NCBI GenBank assembly: GCA_038881595.1
Contig: JAVZPM010000002.1
Location: forward strand, 59,254 to 123,253
DNA length: 64,000 bases
Source: Candidatus Micrarchaeia archaeon
Lineage (GTDB): Archaea; Micrarchaeota; Micrarchaeia; CABMEP01
Direction: 5' to 3'
Positions 36,307 through 63,660 of this stretch are shown piece by piece. A model generated the notes under the pieces. It was given only the letters and a program-made list of their open reading frames with translations. It did no database searches and was not told the DNA's origin. Numbering within the stretch: position 1 is the stretch's first letter; each line of letters starts with the position of its first letter. Made by a program: the position numbers and the translations under genes.

Positions 36307-36486
36307 GGGCCAGTAGCTCAGAGGTAGAGCGCTTCGTTCGCATAAACTTTCTTAGAAAGAGAGTTTGATCAAGGAATTTTCTAAGAAACTCTTTATCAAA
36401 TAGTTTCATCAAAATAAGTGATTGAACTTTCCTAACATGAAAGTAGTAAAGTTTCGGAAAACGAAGAGGTCGCGAGTTCGAATCTC
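36307..36486 (+). tRNA. tRNA-Ala (anticodon CGC) with an approximately 108-nt intron at the canonical 37/38 position
   Basis: Exon 1 36307-36342 (GGGCCAG...CTTCG TTCGCA), exon 2 36451-36486 (A CGAAG...CTGGTCC A); G3:U70 Ala identity pair; T-loop TTCGAAT. Confidence 0.8.
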
Positions 36487-36528
36487 GCCTGGTCCATAAT
36501 TAGTATATAATCAATTAGAGAGGTTAAC

Positions 36529-39510: not shown

Positions 39511-40605
39511 TTACCACATAACTTCTTCTATCATTTCATATGCCTTGTGTTCCTGTTTCTGTGGTTCAAGGTTTCCAAGCAATGATGTGGAGGTAACTCC
39601 GGTCATGATTGCAGTGACAACAACCTTGTCTCCAAGTTCTGGCATGAGTCTTGCTCCCCAGATGACATTTGCATTGTTGTCAAATGCTGCAGTTATTCCT
39701 TCACCAATCTTGGTTGCCTCACCCAATGTAAGATTTGGACCACCTGCTATGTGGATAAGCGCTCCCTTTGCACCTTCATAGCTCACATCAAGCAATGGGT
39801 GTTCTAATGTGCTCTTTATTGCATCCTCAACCTTGTTTGTTCCCTTTCCTTCTCCAACAGAGAGCATTGCAACTCCACCGTTGCCCATGATTGCTCTTAT
39901 GTCGGCAAAGTCAATGTTGATAAGGGATGGGGTCATTATAGTATCAGATATTCCCTTTATTGCTCTTGCAAGTATTTCATCTGCTACATTGAATGCCTCG
40001 TTCATAGGTAAGTTTGGCACGTACTGAACTAATCTGTTGTTGTCAATTACAACTACAGTGTCACATGTTTTTCTTAATTCTTCCAATCCCCATCTTGCCT
40101 TTTCTGTTCTTGCTCTCTCAAGAGAAAATGGGTATGTAACCATACCAACTACTATTGCACCCTCTCTCTTTGCAACCTCTGCAACAACTGGTGCAGCACC
40201 TGTACCTGTACCTCCTCCCATACCTGCTGTAATGAATACTAAATCTGCTCCACTTAATGCCTCTGCAAGCTTGTCTTTTGATGCCTCAGCTGCCTTTCTT
40301 GCAACCTCCGGATATCCTCCAGCACCAAGACCTCTTGTTATGGACTGACCAATTAAGAGTCTCTTGTGAGCCTCTGTTATCTTCAGGTGGTTGACATCAG
40401 TGTTAATTGCTATCGTGTCTGCGGTTTTTATTCCAGATCTCATTATTCTAGTGATGCTGTTGCATCCTCCTCCACCTACTCCTACTACAGTAATTCTGAT
40501 CTTGTCTGATCCAAGGTAATCCTTCTCCGGTGCCTTGGTCGCCTTAACTGTGGTTCCAGATGTAAACGAACTTAGGAAACTTTCCATTTCAACACCCTGC
40601 CTCAA
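39511..40605 (-). CDS. ftsZ: Cell division GTPase FtsZ (paralog A)
   Basis: Tubulin/FtsZ signature [24 protein letters not shown]. Confidence 0.95.
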
Positions 40606-40668: not shown

Positions 40669-41730
40669 TTAACCAATTATTTCAATGTCACCATATATTG
40701 GTGATTCTACTTTTTGCTCTTCAAGTGGTACTCCAACAACACTTGCACCCTTTACTCCAGTTACGATTGCAACTATTTCTATCTTGCCATCATATCCTGG
40801 AATGAGTCTTGCACCCCACTTGACGCTTGCCGTTGAATCCATTCTTTCAGTTATTATTTCTCCTGCCTTGATTGCATCTCCTAATGTCAGGTCGTTTCCA
40901 CCAGAGATGTGGATCAAAGCACCTTTTGCTCCTTCGAAGTCAACATCAAGCAATCTGTTCTTTAGAACTCCTTCTGCAGCTGCCTGAACCTTGTTTGTTC
41001 CTCTTCCTTCACCTACCGCAATGAAACCAACATCACCTTGAGACATAATTGCTCTTACATCTGCAAAGTCAATGTTGATTAATGAAGGTTGTGTTATCGT
41101 CCAGACAAGTCCACCAATTGCTCTTGCAAGTATCTCATCTGCAACTCCAAAAGCCTCATTCATTGGGAGATTTGGAACCAATTGAACCAGTCTGTTGTTG
41201 TCAATTATAATAACACTGTCTGCATGTTTTCTAAGCATCTGAATTCCTTCGTCTGCTTTGCTTCTTCTTGCCTTTTCAAGTGCGAATGGGTAGGTAACCA
41301 TAGCAACTACTATTGCACCTTGTTCTTTTGCAATTTCTGCAACAACAGGAGCACTTCCTGTACCTGTACCTCCTCCCATACCTGCACAGATAAAAACTAA
41401 TTGTGCATCTTTTAGTGCTCTTTCGATTAAAGGCTTGTCAATTTCTGCAGCCTTTCTCCCTACATCAACATATCCTCCAGCACCAAGACCTCTTGTTATA
41501 GATTTACCTATAAGAATCTTTTGAATCCTTTCATCTAATGTCAATAAGTGCTGATTATCTGTATTAATTGCAATCAGATCAGCACCCTTAACACCATATC
41601 TAAGAAGTCTCTGAAGGGTGTTGTTTCCTCCACCACCGCAGCCCACGACTGCGATCTTAATTCTTTCAACTGGACCAAGATTTGACTCAGCCTCAGTGTG
41701 TCCTGTAACAGATTTGATTAAGCTTTCCAT
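40669..41730 (-). CDS. ftsZ: Cell division GTPase FtsZ (paralog B)
   Basis: [25 protein letters not shown]; second FtsZ directly upstream of the first. Confidence 0.95.
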
Positions 41731-45676: not shown

Positions 45677-45787
45677 GGCCGCAGAGGGGAATCGAACCCC
45701 TGCTTGGAGGTTTCTGCATTTTTGATGAAACTTTCTTTTAGAAAGTTTCTCCACAGCCTCCCGTCCTACCATTAGACGACCGCGGCC
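45677..45787 (-). tRNA. tRNA-His (anticodon GUG) with an encoded G-1 and an approximately 38-nt intron in the anticodon loop
   Basis: Reverse complement: G-1 + GCCGCGG acceptor, anticodon stem GGAGG/CCTCC, loop CTGTGG|intron|A, T-arm AGGGG TTCGATT CCCCT, discriminator C. Confidence 0.75.
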
Positions 45788-52561: not shown

Positions 52562-53179
52562 TCATTCGCTTTCTTCATCTTTATCTCCTTTTCTTTTCTG
52601 ATATCTGCCTCTCTTCTCTATTTCATCCATTTGTCTTACTACTTTTTTCCATTCTTTAAATGTTTTGTACCCTTCTAAAAAATGTTTGAAATTTTTTCCT
52701 ATCGATCTTTTCATTAATAAAACATCTATTGCTCTCTCTTCTGGATCATTTGAAAATTCTGCTAAACCAAAATCTATAATATATGGTTCGTTTTTTACAA
52801 ACATTACATTCGCTGGGGTGAAGTCACCATGTGTTATTCCTATTGAATGAAGTTTAGATAGTATCTTTCCGACTTCTTTGTAATCCTTAGTAGAATTTTT
52901 TCTATCTTTCATTAATTTTCCTTCAAGCCTTTCAAGAATCAACTCGTATCTGCCGGCATGATATATTTTTGGAACATTTATACTACTTTTTAATGCATGA
53001 AGTATACATCTTGCTTCTGTTTTGTTCCTCATTTTTCTAAGTATTTCATCTAATTCGCTTATTCTGTATTCTTTTTTGTCTCTAACTTTTACAACAACAG
53101 GAAGACCGAATAATTCAGAGAAATAGACTTTTGCTTCTGCACCTCTGCTTTTGTAATTCTTTTGTTTACTTTGGCTCAC
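52562..53179 (-). CDS. bud32: Bud32/PRPK-like kinase (KEOPS subunit)
   Basis: Small atypical kinase: GAEAKVY, catalytic HGDFTPANVMF, IIDFGLA. Confidence 0.8.
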   Translation of the reverse strand: MSQSKQKNYKSRGAEAKVYFSELFGLPVVVKVRDKKEYRISELDEILRKMRNKTEARCILHALKSSINVPKIYHAGRYELILERLEGKLMKDRKNSTKDYKEVGKILSKLHSIGITHGDFTPANVMFVKNEPYIIDFGLAEFSNDPEERAIDVLLMKRSIGKNFKHFLEGYKTFKEWKKVVRQMDEIEKRGRYQKRKGDKDEESE

Positions 53180-53862
53180 TCTTCTCCCTTCTTTTCTTTC
53201 AGAACAGTCGGTCCTCTCTTTAAAAATTCACCCAAGCTCTTTGCTCCGCTTTTTGTTATGATGTAAGAACCTGTGAATACTATTGCTGCGACAAATGGAT
53301 TTAATCCGAGTGCCAATGCGCCTATGCTTCCTCCGCCTATCAAGGGTAAAGAGGGTGAAGTGAGCAACTCGGCTATTTTTTCACTTAGCGTAGGTGGCGT
53401 TTTAGTGAATGGATTTATTTCTATTAATGTCTTTCCATTCTTCATAATCCTTACAGCACCATCTTCTTCACTTGAGATTATAGAAATAGTTCCTGGCACT
53501 TCAGATATTCCAAGTGCAGCGCTATGTCTTGTGCCATGTCCTTTGTAATGTTTCGTTTTTTTAATTTGGGCTCCATATGCAATAAGATATCCTTCTTCGT
53601 CAATTATTATTGCACCATCAAGTTCAGCAAGCTTCTTTATTACTGGAAGTATTTTTTTATTGTTTATTTTAACCTTAGTCTTTTCAAGTATATCTGTATA
53701 TAACCATGAATAATATGGTTTAAGATTTCTATTAGTAATTATGAAGAACGAACCTTTTTTTTCCTGTCCAAATTCCATTGCTAGATCAATAACTAACTTA
53801 ACAACGTTCTTCTCTAAATCTATGTCATTAATTATCTTTTCTTTAGTTTTTTTATCTACCAT
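53176..53862 (-). CDS. dacZ: Diadenylate cyclase (DAC/DisA_N domain, DacZ-like)
   Basis: DAC motifs LDGAIIIDEEG (DGA) and GHGTRHSAALGISE (RHR-type); hydrophobic C-terminal region. Confidence 0.8.
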   Translation of the reverse strand: MVDKKTKEKIINDIDLEKNVVKLVIDLAMEFGQEKKGSFFIITNRNLKPYYSWLYTDILEKTKVKINNKKILPVIKKLAELDGAIIIDEEGYLIAYGAQIKKTKHYKGHGTRHSAALGISEVPGTISIISSEEDGAVRIMKNGKTLIEINPFTKTPPTLSEKIAELLTSPSLPLIGGGSIGALALGLNPFVAAIVFTGSYIITKSGAKSLGEFLKRGPTVLKEKKGEE

Positions 53863-60106: not shown

Positions 60107-60213
60107 GCCCCTGTAGCTCAGCTTGGATAGAGCGACTGTCAGACTTAACTTGTTGTTTTGTCTGGTCGAACCTCCTAAGCAGTAGGTCGAGGGTTCAAAT
60201 CCCTCCGGGGGCG
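60107..60213 (+). tRNA. tRNA, probably Arg (anticodon CCU), with a 32-nt intron at a non-canonical position (32/33)
   Basis: Acceptor GCCCCTG/CGGGGGC, D-arm GCTC...GAGC, anticodon stem ACTGT/GCAGT, T-arm GAGGG TTCAAAT CCCTC; a canonical loop (CTCCTAA) forms only if 60141-60172 is spliced out. Confidence 0.6.
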
Positions 60214-60612: not shown

Positions 60613-61305
60613 ATGAATAAAAAAGAAAAAAGATCCAAACACGATTTGCTTCAGATATTTCCAGGCATATTCAAAATAGACGACAAGTTAGCTACTCTTA
60701 ATGCCTACCCTGGAAATACAGTTTATGGTGAGCGATTAATAGATGTAGAAGATAAAGAATATAGATTATGGGATCCATTCAGATCAAAGCTTGCAGGAGC
60801 AATAAAAAAAGGTCTTAAATCGAGCGGGATAAAGAAAGGAGATTCCGTGCTTTATCTTGGAGCTGCAAGCGGAACAACTTGTTCTCATATTTCAGATATC
60901 ATAGGAAAGAATGGCATTATTTACTGTGTTGAGTTTTCAGAGAGGCCTTTGAGAGATCTTATCTCAGTCTGCGAAATAAGAGACAACATGATTCCGATAT
61001 TGGGTGATGCACGAAAACCTCAAGAATATAAGAAGTATATTGAAAGTAAGGTAGATTTCATATATCAAGATGTTGCACAGCCAGATCAGATAAGAATATT
61101 CAAGCTTAACTCTGACATGTTTTTGAAGGAAGGTGGAGAAGGATTCATATGCATAAAGTCTCAATCAATTGATGTCACAAAGGCATCAAAAGAAGTATAT
61201 AAGGAATCATTAAAAGAACTTAAAGATTATGGTTTTACGATTTTACAGGTGATTGAGCTTTCCCCTTATGATTTAAATCATCTTTTTGTTCATGTTAAAA
61301 AATAA
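60613..61305 (+). CDS. flpA: Fibrillarin-like rRNA/tRNA 2'-O-methyltransferase
   Basis: SAM-binding LYLGAASGTTCSHISDI and a conserved fibrillarin C-terminal region. Confidence 0.9.
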   Translation: MNKKEKRSKHDLLQIFPGIFKIDDKLATLNAYPGNTVYGERLIDVEDKEYRLWDPFRSKLAGAIKKGLKSSGIKKGDSVLYLGAASGTTCSHISDIIGKNGIIYCVEFSERPLRDLISVCEIRDNMIPILGDARKPQEYKKYIESKVDFIYQDVAQPDQIRIFKLNSDMFLKEGGEGFICIKSQSIDVTKASKEVYKESLKELKDYGFTILQVIELSPYDLNHLFVHVKK

Positions 61306-61349: not shown

Positions 61350-62297
61350 TTATTCTTTACATTGTTCCAGTTTTGGATATAAGTAACAATAGGCATTGTT
61401 TATGTATGCTGGATAAATTATATACATGCAATCTACAACAATCATTGGGGTTGTTGGTTTGCCAATAAATGTTTCTGCAAATCTTTCATCAGTTCTTAAT
61501 TCTCCTTTCGGATAGTCATCATTTACACATTTCTTTATCAAATCTATATTTCCTCCGTTTTGTTGAATACACGTTAAAAGTTCTTCTTCAGAAAGGAATT
61601 CTTTCTTTTCATTGTATCTGTTTATTACGCAGGTTTTGAATTCATTGAAATAGTCTTTATCTTTTGTGCATTCATAATATAAAAGCGCAATATATGCAGA
61701 GGAATTTACATTTTCTGTTATGTCTTTATAGGTGTATGTTGAAAGAATCCTGTAGTTTAGTCGTATGTCTTCATTGAATGTTTGAATGAATTTTTTGATT
61801 TCGCTATCGTATTTTATTGACCACGGATCATATGGATCAATATAAACATCAACCGTCTTTTTATCTCCAACGCTGCATCCAATTTCTTTTCCAGTTTTTC
61901 TAATGGTGGAAGGTTCTGATGGTATTACTAGATTTTGGCTTACTTTGTTAATCGTAAAATCATTTGCATTCATCCATAAATCAATATTTACTATTCCATC
62001 TGTTGAGTATCCGTTAATATTTATTTTCCATATTCCATTTTCAAGAGTTTTATTGTTTATAGTGATATTTACTATGCCATAGTATAGATTAAGGAAACGT
62101 ATAGCTCTGTTGTCGATAATAGCCGATGGCCCTTCGTCTCCAAATGGAATTTTGATTCCAAGAACAAATAAAGCAAAAATAAATGCGAATATTACAAAAA
62201 ATAGTAAGTATGGAAAGCTTATTTTTTCTTTTACTTTTTCTTTTACCGAGTGTAGTACCTGTCTTATCTTTGATTTGTTCTGTCTTCTTGATTTCAT
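61350..62297 (-). CDS. Membrane-anchored extracytoplasmic protein with a DsbA/thioredoxin-like region (non-canonical active site)
   Basis: N-terminal TM anchor; VDVYIDPYDPWS aligns to the DsbA-type FxDxxCPxC region with DPWS in place of CPxC; cis-Pro-like TTPMIVV. Confidence 0.35.
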   Translation of the reverse strand: MKSRRQNKSKIRQVLHSVKEKVKEKISFPYLLFFVIFAFIFALFVLGIKIPFGDEGPSAIIDNRAIRFLNLYYGIVNITINNKTLENGIWKININGYSTDGIVNIDLWMNANDFTINKVSQNLVIPSEPSTIRKTGKEIGCSVGDKKTVDVYIDPYDPWSIKYDSEIKKFIQTFNEDIRLNYRILSTYTYKDITENVNSSAYIALLYYECTKDKDYFNEFKTCVINRYNEKKEFLSEEELLTCIQQNGGNIDLIKKCVNDDYPKGELRTDERFAETFIGKPTTPMIVVDCMYIIYPAYINNAYCYLYPKLEQCKE

Positions 62298-62319
62298 TTA
62301 ACCACCTTTCTGTATATCT

Positions 62320-62865
62320 TTATCTGCATTGCGATAGAAATAAGTTTAATTCAGATTCTGAATTAAAACTTCCAATATGTATCTGAGAATTTTTCAAGCA
62401 TATATATGTAGGAGTGCCTTCCAATTCAAATGAGTTCATGCAATTCATGAATTTGATCAGCTGTTCAGTATTTTCTGTACTTATCATTCTTATATTATAT
62501 TCAGTTTTCATTTTAGCTATCCAAGGGGTGTTCTTCTGTGAATAAACACAATCCTCTCCGTATATATAAATAACTGACTCATTAATTCCATATCCAGTTA
62601 GACATTCTGTAGTTGTTTTTCCAGCACTTTGCTTTATAATTATTGAAACGTTAGTTTTATTCACATTATTAATCTGGCCTTCTTGATTCTCTCTGAATAA
62701 TATAATCAAAGATATAAATGCAATAAACACTAATATAATTAGAACTGCAATTATACTTCTATTCTTGTTATTTATATTACTTGTATTTCTGTTTATTTCC
62801 TCATCCCTTTTCTTGCTTTCTAGCTCTTTAGCTGTTTTTTTCTTTTTATTCTTTTTCTTTGCCAT
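62320..62865 (-). CDS. Membrane-anchored thioredoxin-like protein with CxxS motif
   Basis: N-terminal TM anchor; GEDCVYS (CxxS) and a GTPTYICL cis-Pro loop in thioredoxin-like spacing. Confidence 0.4.
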   Translation of the reverse strand: MAKKKNKKKKTAKELESKKRDEEINRNTSNINNKNRSIIAVLIILVFIAFISLIILFRENQEGQINNVNKTNVSIIIKQSAGKTTTECLTGYGINESVIYIYGEDCVYSQKNTPWIAKMKTEYNIRMISTENTEQLIKFMNCMNSFELEGTPTYICLKNSQIHIGSFNSESELNLFLSQCR

Positions 62866-63003
62866 AATCTAAATTGAATATAAAGGATTAAAAATTTAAA
62901 GTAGATAATATAATAAAACATATATGGATAACTATCGTGGTTAGAGCAATAATTTAATATTTTTACTTACAGATATATATTTATGTAATGGGTTGAGCGT
63001 CAT

Positions 63004-63115
63004 CCCACCGTAGCTCAATCTGGCAGAGCATCTCGCTGTAGTCCAGCCTGTCAGATCCTCTGACAGTCGTTTTGTAGAAACGAGAGGGTTGCTGGTTCAA
63101 ATCCGGCCGGTGGGA
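63004..63115 (+). tRNA. tRNA-Tyr (anticodon GUA) with an approximately 38-nt intron at 37/38
   Basis: Acceptor CCCACCG/CGGTGGG (C1:G72), anticodon stem TCTCG/CGAGA, loop CTGTAG|intron|A, T-arm GCTGG TTCAAAT CCGGC. Confidence 0.75.
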
Positions 63116-63129
63116 CTTGAAAAAAATGC

Positions 63130-63239
63130 GCTTGGGTGGTGTAGAACCTTGTTGCGCAGGTTCTGCGCACATGGTGCACAGTGGTCTAGCATTGCGGCCT
63201 GTCACGCCGCCGACCCGGGTTCGAATCCCGGCCCAGGCG
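63130..63239 (+). tRNA. tRNA-Asp (anticodon GUC) with an approximately 37-nt intron in the D-loop
   Basis: Exon 1 GCTTGGGTGGTGTAG, exon 2 TGGTCTAGCAT T GCGGC CTGTCAC GCCGC...CCGGG TTCGAAT CCCGG CCCAGGC G; the mature 73-nt cloverleaf requires removing 63145-63181. Confidence 0.65.
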
Positions 63240-63324
63240 CTTTTATATTCATTTTTATATTCTTATTTTTATAAATAAGAATAATTAAATTTAAGAATAA
63301 CTAAATTAAGTCATTTTCATTAAC

Positions 63325-63660
63325 TTATTTTGGGCATTCTCCTTCTGTCCAATATTCAACTTTAGGATCTTGGCATGCGAAACATTTATTAGAATACGTT
63401 GCTGCACAAGGATATCTCACACATTTTATTGATTCATTAAACCATCCACATACTGGCTCATATAAAGCAATGCAAACCTCTGCTTTTCTTGACTCTGGCG
63501 TACAATAATTCTGTTTTTTATAATCAAAATGATCAGAATTTTCTTTAATCACTTTATCTGCAATGTAAATTAAAGCAGCTATTGCAATTATAGCTATCAC
63601 AAAGTAGAAAACAATTTTCATTTTTTTATACATTTTAATTTTCACTTCCTTTCCCTTCAT
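63325..63660 (-). CDS. Membrane-anchored Kazal-like domain protein (putative protease inhibitor)
   Basis: N-terminal TM anchor; Cys pattern with PVCG and TYSNKCFAC resembles the Kazal-type core. Confidence 0.5.
   Translation of the reverse strand: MKGKEVKIKMYKKMKIVFYFVIAIIAIAALIYIADKVIKENSDHFDYKKQNYCTPESRKAEVCIALYEPVCGWFNESIKCVRYPCAATYSNKCFACQDPKVEYWTEGECPK

Follow-up and report, generated by a model that had tools for sequence, protein, structure and literature searches.

Three neighbouring minus-strand genes, each predicted to encode a membrane-anchored protein that faces out of the cell, raise the question of whether they form one functional unit or two neighbours. They lie in a 64,000-nucleotide (nt) stretch of a Candidatus Micrarchaeia archaeon (GenBank assembly GCA_038881595.1, contig JAVZPM010000002.1, positions 59,254 to 123,253 of the forward strand), the whole of which we call the window. 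The initial annotation took their DsbA-like (P1), thioredoxin-like (P2) and Kazal-like (P3) products together as a single surface redox or protease-control module. Our analysis departs from this, in that the P2-P1 pair is conserved whereas the Kazal gene is adjacent only in close relatives, and we moderately favour two separate things lying side by side: P3, a probable surface inhibitor, and P2-P1, a lineage-specific pair that is probably co-transcribed. The genes and their parts are as follows.

61350..62297, minus strand: P1 open reading frame, 315 amino acids, predicted type II membrane protein
61350..61880, minus strand: P1 DsbA-like domain (alignment, AlphaFold2 model, Foldseek)
61818..61829, minus strand: P1 pseudo-active site DPWS (translation)
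61893-62129, minus strand: P1 N-terminal alpha/beta domain, residues 57-135 (AlphaFold2 model)
62298..62319, minus strand: P2-P1 spacer of 22 nt, with a ribosome-binding-like motif, GGTGG, just upstream of the P1 ATG (sequence)
62320..62865, minus strand: P2 open reading frame, 181 amino acids, predicted type II membrane protein
62539..62550, minus strand: P2 active-site motif CVYS (translation)
63325..63660, minus strand: P3 open reading frame, 111 amino acids, predicted type II membrane protein
63328..63504, minus strand: P3 Kazal-type domain, residues 53-111, including PVCG and TYSNKCFAC (translation)
63448..63474, minus strand: P3 reactive-site-loop equivalent CIALYEPVC (translation)

All three products are labelled hypothetical in the source records. 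Their homologues score strongly, with E values of 1e-54 to 1e-199 for P1, 1e-37 to 1e-110 for P2 and 1e-10 to 1e-60 for P3, and the three are thus real genes and not chance open reading frames. Each carries one strongly hydrophobic 19-mer near its N terminus (Kyte-Doolittle 2.9-3.6), preceded by a basic flank of 7-14 lysines and arginines, and all cysteines of the three proteins lie C-terminal to this segment. By the positive-inside rule, this arrangement predicts N-in/C-out type II anchoring for all three.

The open reading frames, the hydrophobic 19-mers and the Rfam and ARAGORN calls agree with the initial annotation in placing three N-terminally anchored minus-strand products around a tRNA pair (Tyr called, Asp probable), and the motifs that it quoted (DPWS, CVYS, PVCG and TYSNKCFAC) translate exactly as stated. 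Of the profile searches that it proposed as a check, those with single window proteins stayed under the Pfam cut-offs, which is the refuting outcome that it named; family-level and structural evidence overturns this outcome and supports its three folds. This evidence comprises, for the Kazal-like P3, the alignment (hhalign) to canonical DPANN Kazal domains; for P2 as a thioredoxin-like protein with CxxS and a GTP cis-Pro loop, 113 relatives, Pfam-passing CPHC members and PDB profile matches; and for P1 as a DsbA-like protein with DPWS in place of CPxC, an AlphaFold2 model, Foldseek matches and an invariant motif.

Each of the three proteins also contains an N-x-S/T sequon: N-V-S at residues 72-74 of P2, N-I-T at residues 77-79 of P1 and N-E-S at residues 75-77 of P3. 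N72 and S74 of P2 are invariant and N77 of P1 is nearly so, both sequons lying just outside the membrane, and in many relatives of P3 the sequon falls within the Kazal insertion described below. This suggests that the ectodomains of P1, P2 and P3 may be N-glycosylated.

P3 consists of a transmembrane helix (residues 16-34), a short linker and a C-terminal Kazal-type domain whose eight cysteines follow the pattern C53-x9-C63-x7-C71-x8-C80-x4-C85-x7-C93-x2-C96-x12-C109. Six of them reproduce the Kazal arrangement C1..C2-x7-C3..C4-x2-C5..C6 (C53, C63-x7-C71, C93-x2-C96 and C109), and the reactive-loop scaffold and spacer Asn are present as C-I-A-L-Y-E-P-V-C-G and T-Y-S-N-K-C, with a loop register that matches PSTI and SPINK1 in PDB profile alignments. 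The remaining two, C80 and C85, belong to an insertion of 11 residues that separates the C3-G motif from T-Y-x-N. Cysteines of the family are 98-100% conserved (86 unique sequences), and the predicted disulfides would be C53-C96, C63-C93 and C71-C109 (Kazal 1-5, 2-4 and 3-6) together with C80-C85.

P3 alone scored 15.6 bits against Pfam Kazal_1, where the cut-off is 21, and its match was split around the insertion; at the level of the family, 22 of 31 members matched, one of which (P0014) passed with 24.1 bits. Comparison by hhalign of the eight-cysteine family with seven DPANN Kazal domains, most of them in regions above the Kazal_1 cut-off, gave a significant match (probability 98.8%, E 1.1e-16, 46% identity), and the lone difference from the canonical domains was an 11-residue gap spanning C80/C85. 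Nearly all matches of the domain profile in the PDB were Kazal inhibitors, albeit weak ones (best E 0.014). The fold is that of a Kazal domain, in which a short helix packs against a small antiparallel sheet; the AlphaFold2 model of the 63-residue domain reached a predicted local distance difference test score (pLDDT) of 80, and a Foldseek search with this model returned nothing. Judged by its sequence, P3 is a Kazal homologue with an insertion.

Relative to known Kazal inhibitors (MEROPS I1; Kazal_1/Kazal_2, PF00050/PF07648; turkey ovomucoid third domain, SPINK1), the P3 family differs in the 11-residue insertion, the two extra invariant cysteines and the frequent N-x-S sequon, and its C5-C6 segment is short (12 residues). 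Its members are tethered by an N-terminal transmembrane helix or a lipobox instead of being secreted, and they come from an archaeal lineage (DPANN). When one genome per species was scanned, the eight-cysteine domain turned up in at least 136 species genomes, most of which carry DPANN labels, and DPANN proteins contain canonical Kazal domains as well; the remark in the initial annotation that Kazal domains are rare in archaea has to be qualified accordingly. By the labels given in the sources, about three-quarters of the 80 loci listed are DPANN, roughly 17 are "uncultured Methanosarcinales", and one each is "Dehalococcoidia" and "bacterium". Domains from Micr-, Woese-, Pace-, Nano-, Aenigm-, Alti-, Iain- and Parvarchaeota are 54-100% identical over 63 residues, and a hydrophobic N-terminal segment is present in 88 of 89 family proteins.

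The domain company of the family bears on its function. Canonical Kazal domains occur in 6 of the 20 longest family proteins, and in several proteins the eight-cysteine domain comes after canonical domains that score 33-66 bits on Kazal_1. At locus L035 it shares one polypeptide with a serpin and DUF333, and at L022 it is combined with a chagasin (I42) domain, with an alpha-2-macroglobulin gene directly upstream. DUF333 is found in 7 of the 20 longest proteins. These fusions favour protease inhibition as the function of the eight-cysteine domain.

Conservation within the domain is uneven. Y67 (96%), P69, G72 and N91 (each 100%) are conserved, with Y67, P69, V70, C71 and G72 all at 96-100% in the 86 unique sequences, and loop positions 64, 65, 66 and 68 are hypervariable (2.1-3.4 bits). 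Positions that correspond to the protease-contact residues of ovomucoid vary more than the rest of the domain (mean 2.29 vs 1.39 bits; one-sided Mann-Whitney p 0.013). The loop has the spacing of the ovomucoid loop CTLEYRPLC in PDB alignments, and in the numbering of the ovomucoid third domain OMTKY3, C63 would be at subsite P3, I64 at P2, A65 at P1, L66 at P1' and Y67 at P2'. P3 would then be a membrane-tethered, outward-facing inhibitor of extracellular serine proteases that acts by the standard mechanism, binding tightly in a substrate-like manner, and would present the loop C63-I-A-L-Y-E-P-V-C71 with Ala65 as its P1 residue. We consider protease inhibition the probable function of P3, and a plausible role would be to shield the surface of the episymbiont from its own, host or neighbour proteases.

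Several points weigh against this assignment. The residue at the P1-equivalent position is most often Glu (32% of the family), which is unusual for strong Kazal inhibitors, and the insertion lies beside the hairpin after the reactive-site loop, where it might change canonical protease binding or prevent it altogether. No cognate protease gene was found near the Kazal-like gene in neighbourhood clustering of 82 loci or in the window survey, and a window-wide gene survey found no secreted serine protease. Taken singly, moreover, P1, P2 and P3 all lie under every Pfam and NCBIfam cut-off. An alternative is that P3 is a small binding or spacer domain, stabilised by disulfides and used in attachment to the host cell or S-layer, comparable to the Kazal-like domains of agrin, follistatin, SPARC and SLCO proteins. 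We consider it unlikely, since contact-equivalent positions vary within a scaffold, C-x3-Y-x-P-V-C-G with the spacer Asn, that is conserved at 96-100%, and since the domain shares chains with canonical Kazal, serpin and chagasin domains and adjoins an alpha-2-macroglobulin gene.

Some relatives of P3 merit separate description. Proteins with DUF333 (PF03891) are encoded at L035:4261-6564, L043:4966-6186, L075:4990-6171, L018:5092-6192, L068:1595-2614, L071:5194-6180 and L058:5380-6189, and P0025 is a further one; DUF333 is a candidate protease-inhibitor or inhibitor-associated module. The L022 locus (L022:546-6528) lies on a 60%-GC contig labelled Dehalococcoidia, on which an alpha-2-macroglobulin gene of 1400 amino acids is followed by a lipoprotein with Kazal-like and chagasin domains; either a bacterium has acquired the DPANN domain by horizontal transfer or the contig is mis-binned. 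Many of the longer relatives have two further Cys-rich modules upstream of the Kazal-like domain, the first with the motif A-C-T-x-E-A-K-x-C-P-D-G-S-x-V-G-R-x-x-P-x-C-E-F-x-x-C-P and the second ending in C-G-C-G-C-E. Carriers are P0011, P0018 and P0025-P0028, P0015-P0021 and P0026 (alignment A1, columns 83-200), and L071:5194-6180.

P2 combines a transmembrane helix (residues 38-56) with an extracytoplasmic thioredoxin-fold domain (approximately residues 85-181) that carries the motif C106-V-Y-S109, a G-T-P152 loop and, besides C106, the conserved cysteines C88, C142, C156 and C180. CVYSQ is invariant in the eight closest homologues, and CxYSQ-NTPW is invariant in close homologues. P2 alone gave weak TraF, ResA and PedC hints under the Pfam and NCBIfam cut-offs, and 6 of 8 family members matched Pfam TraF weakly. 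A profile of the eight close homologues returned spurious transmembrane-region matches only from the PDB, and it was the widened family that gave matches to the superfamily.

A search of 1.84 billion representatives with a profile of the P2 soluble domain recovered 113 representative relatives. Their active-site column reads CPHC in 33, CGWC in 10, CGYC in 8 and C-x-x-S in approximately 35, and the four other cysteines of P2 are kept almost throughout. Relatives with CPHC score 23.5-28.1 bits against Pfam Thioredoxin (PF00085; cut-off 23.5), and a 40-sequence profile matched TXNDC5 (3.8e-9), PDI (2e-5), thioredoxin (6e-5) and glutaredoxin in the PDB, with E values ranging to 1e-4. The thioredoxin fold is thus recognised through relatives and the family profile. 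The predicted cis-Pro loop is retained as well, G-T-P152 being present in all eight close homologues and the Pro invariant in the 40-sequence alignment. The C-x-x-C dithiol is lacking, and CVYS aligns with the CPHC of the canonical relatives. P2 has five conserved cysteines, compared with six in its CPHC relatives, which implies that C106 is unpaired. On the strength of these profiles, P2 belongs to the thioredoxin superfamily and to a DPANN-wide extracytoplasmic family, of which the Micrarchaeota branch keeps a single active-site thiol.

In several P2-family proteins the thioredoxin domain is joined to SurA_N and Rotamase (parvulin) domains or to FKBP. Three such proteins, P0084, P0163 and P0067, are of the CPHC type and carry SurA_N plus parvulin or FKBP peptidyl-prolyl isomerase domains; one comes from a Woesearchaeota metagenome-assembled genome and another from a groundwater metagenome record. 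By their domain content, these CPHC fusions would be single-chain extracytoplasmic foldases that combine disulfide and prolyl chemistry. Another relative, P0068 (3586 amino acids), contains six repeats that match profile positions 56-111 only, corresponding to the C-terminal half of the P2-type domain; they carry the motif NLEGAPAGNC and lack the active-site half.

P1 comprises a basic N-terminal tail, a transmembrane helix (residues 30-48), an alpha/beta domain (approximately residues 57-135) and a DsbA-fold domain (approximately residues 140-315). An AlphaFold2 model built from the family alignment (pLDDT 81; predicted template-modelling score 0.72) shows, after the alpha/beta domain, the order beta-alpha-beta, helical insert, beta-beta-alpha. 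Foldseek comparison of the model with the PDB yielded 118 matches at E<=1e-3, and the top 50 (TM-target 0.6-0.7) were all DsbA or DsbA-like, led by 3h93 of P. aeruginosa (E 3.5e-7, TM-target 0.69); YjbH was also among the matches. The model and its matches thus reveal a thioredoxin fold with an inserted helical domain, as in DsbA. Between the transmembrane anchor and this domain, residues 57-135 form a well-modelled helix and four strands (pLDDT about 90) that were assigned to no family; one family member has a PepSY match in this N-terminal domain that is too weak to use (E 0.12).

Sequence profiles detected the DsbA relationship less strongly, and no match to the Pfam DsbA families (PF01323, PF13462 and PF13743) exceeded a curated threshold. 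The partial match of P1 to Pfam Thioredoxin_5 reached 13.8 bits, where the cut-off is 27, and aligned residues 151-197 with profile positions 2-46; 7 of 18 family members matched Pfam DSBA weakly (best E 9e-4, under the cut-off). Among PDB sequences the top match of the family profile was 3f4r (E 0.096), a Wolbachia DsbA, aligned from the helical domain through the TTP loop. Alignment by hhalign to E. coli DsbA was not significant (E 0.096), though it paired T-T-P284 with V-P151 in a sensible cis-Pro register.

At the N terminus of helix 1, where DsbA has C-P-x-C, P1 has D157-P158-W159-S160. This tetrapeptide lies inside the motif D-x-Y-x-D-P-Y-D-P-W-(S/T), which begins at D150 and is invariant in all 18 homologues. 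DSSP places a strand at residues 146-153 and a helix from residue 158, so that D157-S160 falls where strand beta-1 gives way to the first helix. The putative cis-Pro-type loop T-T-P284 is likewise invariant in 18 of 18, as are eight other cysteines (C141, C210, C223, C243, C257, C290, C304 and C313). The homologues span 33-94% identity, share 49 invariant columns and are labelled Micrarchaeota or Micrarchaeia wherever the source names a lineage. A more distant homologue at locus L089 (26% identity) reads D-P-Y-E-P-W-S, with the acidic residue kept, and has lost the Pro of TTP to give T-K.

A thiol oxidase was considered for P1 and rejected, because the invariant D-P-W-S replaces C-P-x-C and with it both catalytic cysteines. 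P1 shares with DsbA, BdbD and MdbA the thioredoxin fold with an inserted helical domain; it has a T-P loop at what would be the cis-Pro position, and it appears to be membrane-anchored on the outside as Gram-positive DsbA-like proteins are. It differs from them in the invariant D-P-W-S, the extra N-terminal alpha/beta domain, the eight other conserved cysteines and scores under the Pfam cut-offs. On model and sequence, P1 has the architecture of DsbA and should not be filed as a DsbA in function. That the altered site does not vary speaks for a function that has been kept but differs from that of DsbA, most likely binding.

P2 and P1 recur together. Both in the window and at loci L001, L002, L003, L006 and L089, P2 is followed by P1 after a gap of 4-36 nt and then by a convergent fibrillarin gene, which in the window lies as follows.

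60613-61305, plus strand: fibrillarin gene, convergent with P1

Identity of P1 to the window protein falls from 66% at L001 to 42% at L002, 39% at L003 and 26% at L089, and the pair persists down to 26-31%. The divergent partners were confirmed by profile searches, with the P2-like protein of L002 at E 2.7e-21 and the P1-like protein of L089 at E 6e-36 (hhalign, hidden Markov models); the P2 proteins of the distant pairs carry CSYS (L002), CQFS (L003) and CSFS (L089). P2 and P1 are a conserved, lineage-specific pair, and the spacing and the motif upstream of P1 fit co-transcription. Fibrillarin is the constant downstream neighbour of P2-P1 in every Micrarchaeota locus examined (26-94% P1 identity). 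An origin of P1 and P2 as recent paralogues was also considered and is rejected, as hhalign detected no similarity between the two families.

What might such a pair do? Derived from a DPANN-wide extracytoplasmic family of CPHC oxidoreductases, P2 would attack substrate disulfides with its nucleophilic cysteine alone and form mixed disulfides, and would be unable itself to hold or donate a disulfide. Since it keeps the nucleophilic cysteine only, P2 is best read, by analogy with the eukaryotic CRFS proteins ERp44 and TMX5, as a factor that isomerises disulfides or exerts quality control by trapping thiols. Such CxxS proteins of the PDI family have been described as "natural trapping mutants" with long-lived mixed disulfides (PMC7563315). 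P2 shares with them a thioredoxin-type domain, a C-x-x-S motif and an oxidising, extracytoplasmic-equivalent compartment, and TMX5 is membrane-anchored too (PMC7563315). P2 differs in being related to them at the level of the thioredoxin superfamily only, and in its four extra conserved cysteines, its type II anchor and its DsbA-fold partner gene.

P1 would be a redox-dead, functionally constrained binding module, the constraint being evident from the invariance of the acidic and aromatic motif around D-P-W-S. Its part in the pair is most likely to bind substrates or partners, much as the non-catalytic b' domain does in PDI. PDI b/b' domains, TraF of the F plasmid and YjbH likewise use thioredoxin or DsbA folds without a working CxxC in protein binding; the analogy is one of use and not of subfamily homology, and P1 differs in being a separate polypeptide and not a domain of a catalytic protein.

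The weak points of this proposal are in both halves of the pair. The basis for a physical interaction between P1 and P2 is, in its entirety, gene order. The thioredoxin fold of P2 comes from profiles and not from a direct model, and the placement of D157 and S160 on the CxxC of DsbA follows from secondary structure and profile registers and not from superposition. One of the extra cysteines of P2 could, in addition, act as a distal resolving cysteine. In that case P2 might be a net thiol oxidase or reductase, for which its four additional invariant cysteines offer candidates, and P1 might have an unrelated small-molecule or enzymatic role: the DsbA-like Pfam family includes the cysteine-free enzymes GST-kappa and HCCA isomerase, and the pocket motif of P1 is as invariant as a catalytic or ligand site would be. 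We regard this combination as quite unlikely. The same four cysteines are kept in CPHC relatives, where none is needed for resolution, and are thus most simply structural; P1, for its part, is membrane-anchored and extracellular, where glutathione-type cofactors are not expected, and its tight, conserved pairing with P2 points to a shared function. An isomerase or trapping factor with a binding partner remains our preferred reading of the pair.

Whether P3 belongs with this pair was assessed from gene neighbourhoods. P1 or P2 stands beside a Kazal gene solely in the Micrarchaeia group, and at Kazal-like loci outside this group no P1/P2 relative was found within approximately 6 kb. Conversely, no Kazal-like open reading frame was found near the distant P2-P1 loci, in approximately 5 kb on each side at L002 or in approximately 2 kb upstream and 6 kb downstream at L003. 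Neighbourhood clustering of the 82 Kazal-like loci revealed no conserved neighbour, no family recurring in more than 8 of them, and this disfavours an operon partner or a cognate protease gene. On these three grounds, the P3-P2-P1 adjacency is lineage-specific.

The strongest argument for a single module, with P2 and P1 as dedicated, co-regulated oxidative-folding or isomerisation machinery for a four-disulfide P3, is that all three genes are adjacent in the window and at L001/L010, L006, L008 and L009 (L007 shows P3 and P2 only). P3 would moreover need four correct disulfides, and the three proteins are predicted to face the same compartment. We nevertheless find this arrangement very doubtful, given the two opposite-strand tRNA genes between P3 and P2, the further other-strand gene of 283 amino acids at that place in L001, the lack of Kazal-like open reading frames in the DNA examined around L002 and L003, and the neighbourhoods beyond Micrarchaeia, where neither a nearby P1/P2 relative nor a neighbour family in more than 8 of 82 loci appears. 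It is possible that P2-P1 helps to fold Cys-rich surface proteins such as P3, though gene order gives no sign of this. That P1 and P2 are no more than degenerating remnants of an earlier Dsb system, with no specific function, as the loss of catalytic cysteines and the reductive genomes of DPANN might suggest, is scarcely credible in view of the 49 columns, altered site included, that are invariant among the 18 P1 sequences at 33-94% identity, the invariant CxYSQ-NTPW of P2, and a pair and gene order kept down to 26-31% identity.

The folds and plausible chemistries of P1, P2 and P3 are well known, and no known biology is overturned. New are the eight-cysteine Kazal class, its breadth in DPANN, its combinations with other inhibitor domains, and the conserved pairing of a CxxS thioredoxin with a cysteine-free DsbA fold. 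In the literature we found nothing on the three families beyond a remark on Kazal domains in DPANN and the annotation of one thaumarchaeon: a passing mention reportedly places Kazal-type inhibitors among DPANN-unique fold groups (PMC13607799), and an arCOG-annotated Kazal inhibitor appears in a thaumarchaeon (PMC6697440).

Tentatively, DPANN may carry a previously unrecognised arsenal of surface protease inhibitors built around the eight-cysteine Kazal domain, used by itself, as in P3, or together with canonical Kazal, serpin, chagasin and DUF333 domains, for surviving on or manipulating the proteolytic surface of a host. The P2-P1 pair of Micrarchaeota would then be a split, membrane-anchored, PDI-like isomerase or chaperone that matures such proteins. 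Most DPANN surface proteins are unannotated, and for the study of DPANN-host interaction a 60-residue Kazal domain conserved over many DPANN phyla provides a concrete, expressible and assayable handle, and the Kazal family gains an eight-cysteine insertion class. The P2-P1 pair represents a natural experiment in the repurposing of thioredoxin folds, with a monothiol enzyme beside a catalytically dead DsbA fold, and bears on extracytoplasmic disulfide chemistry in archaea without a described Dsb system.

Both tRNA genes of the locus sit between P2 and P3 on the opposite strand (Rfam, ARAGORN). They and the other long tRNA genes of the window are listed below.

63004..63115, plus strand: tRNA-Tyr(GTA), intron at the canonical position (Rfam 52.6 bits; ARAGORN intron option)
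63128..63240, plus strand: probable tRNA-Asp(GTC), non-canonical intron of approximately 38-41 nt (Rfam partial match 63172-63231; ARAGORN deletion scan)
36307-36496, plus strand: long tRNA gene (Rfam)
45677-45786, minus strand: long tRNA gene (Rfam)
60107-60213, plus strand: long tRNA gene (Rfam)

ARAGORN at its defaults missed both genes of the pair, and its sole tRNA call in the window was an intron-less tRNA-Gln. With the intron option it identified tRNA-Tyr(GTA) with a 38-nt intron. For the second gene, in-silico deletion of approximately 38-41 nt near the 5' end produced tRNA-Asp(GTC) calls, and the intron mode called Glu(CTC) as an alternative; the gene is probably, though not certainly, a tRNA-Asp. 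Its intron would lie near the 5' end, in the acceptor/D-arm region, and not at position 37/38. Five of the six tRNA genes found by Rfam in the window are 107-190 nt long, and introns are thereby implied.

The window-wide survey found no canonical Dsb or VKOR gene, and the remainder of the window consists of ordinary archaeal housekeeping genes, together with LonB and a gene that weakly matches a type-I signal-peptidase family. Pfam annotation of an identical public contig further places two adjacent FtsZ/tubulin paralogues at 39511-40605 and 40669-41730 and a diadenylate cyclase (DAC) gene at 53176-53862, all on the minus strand.

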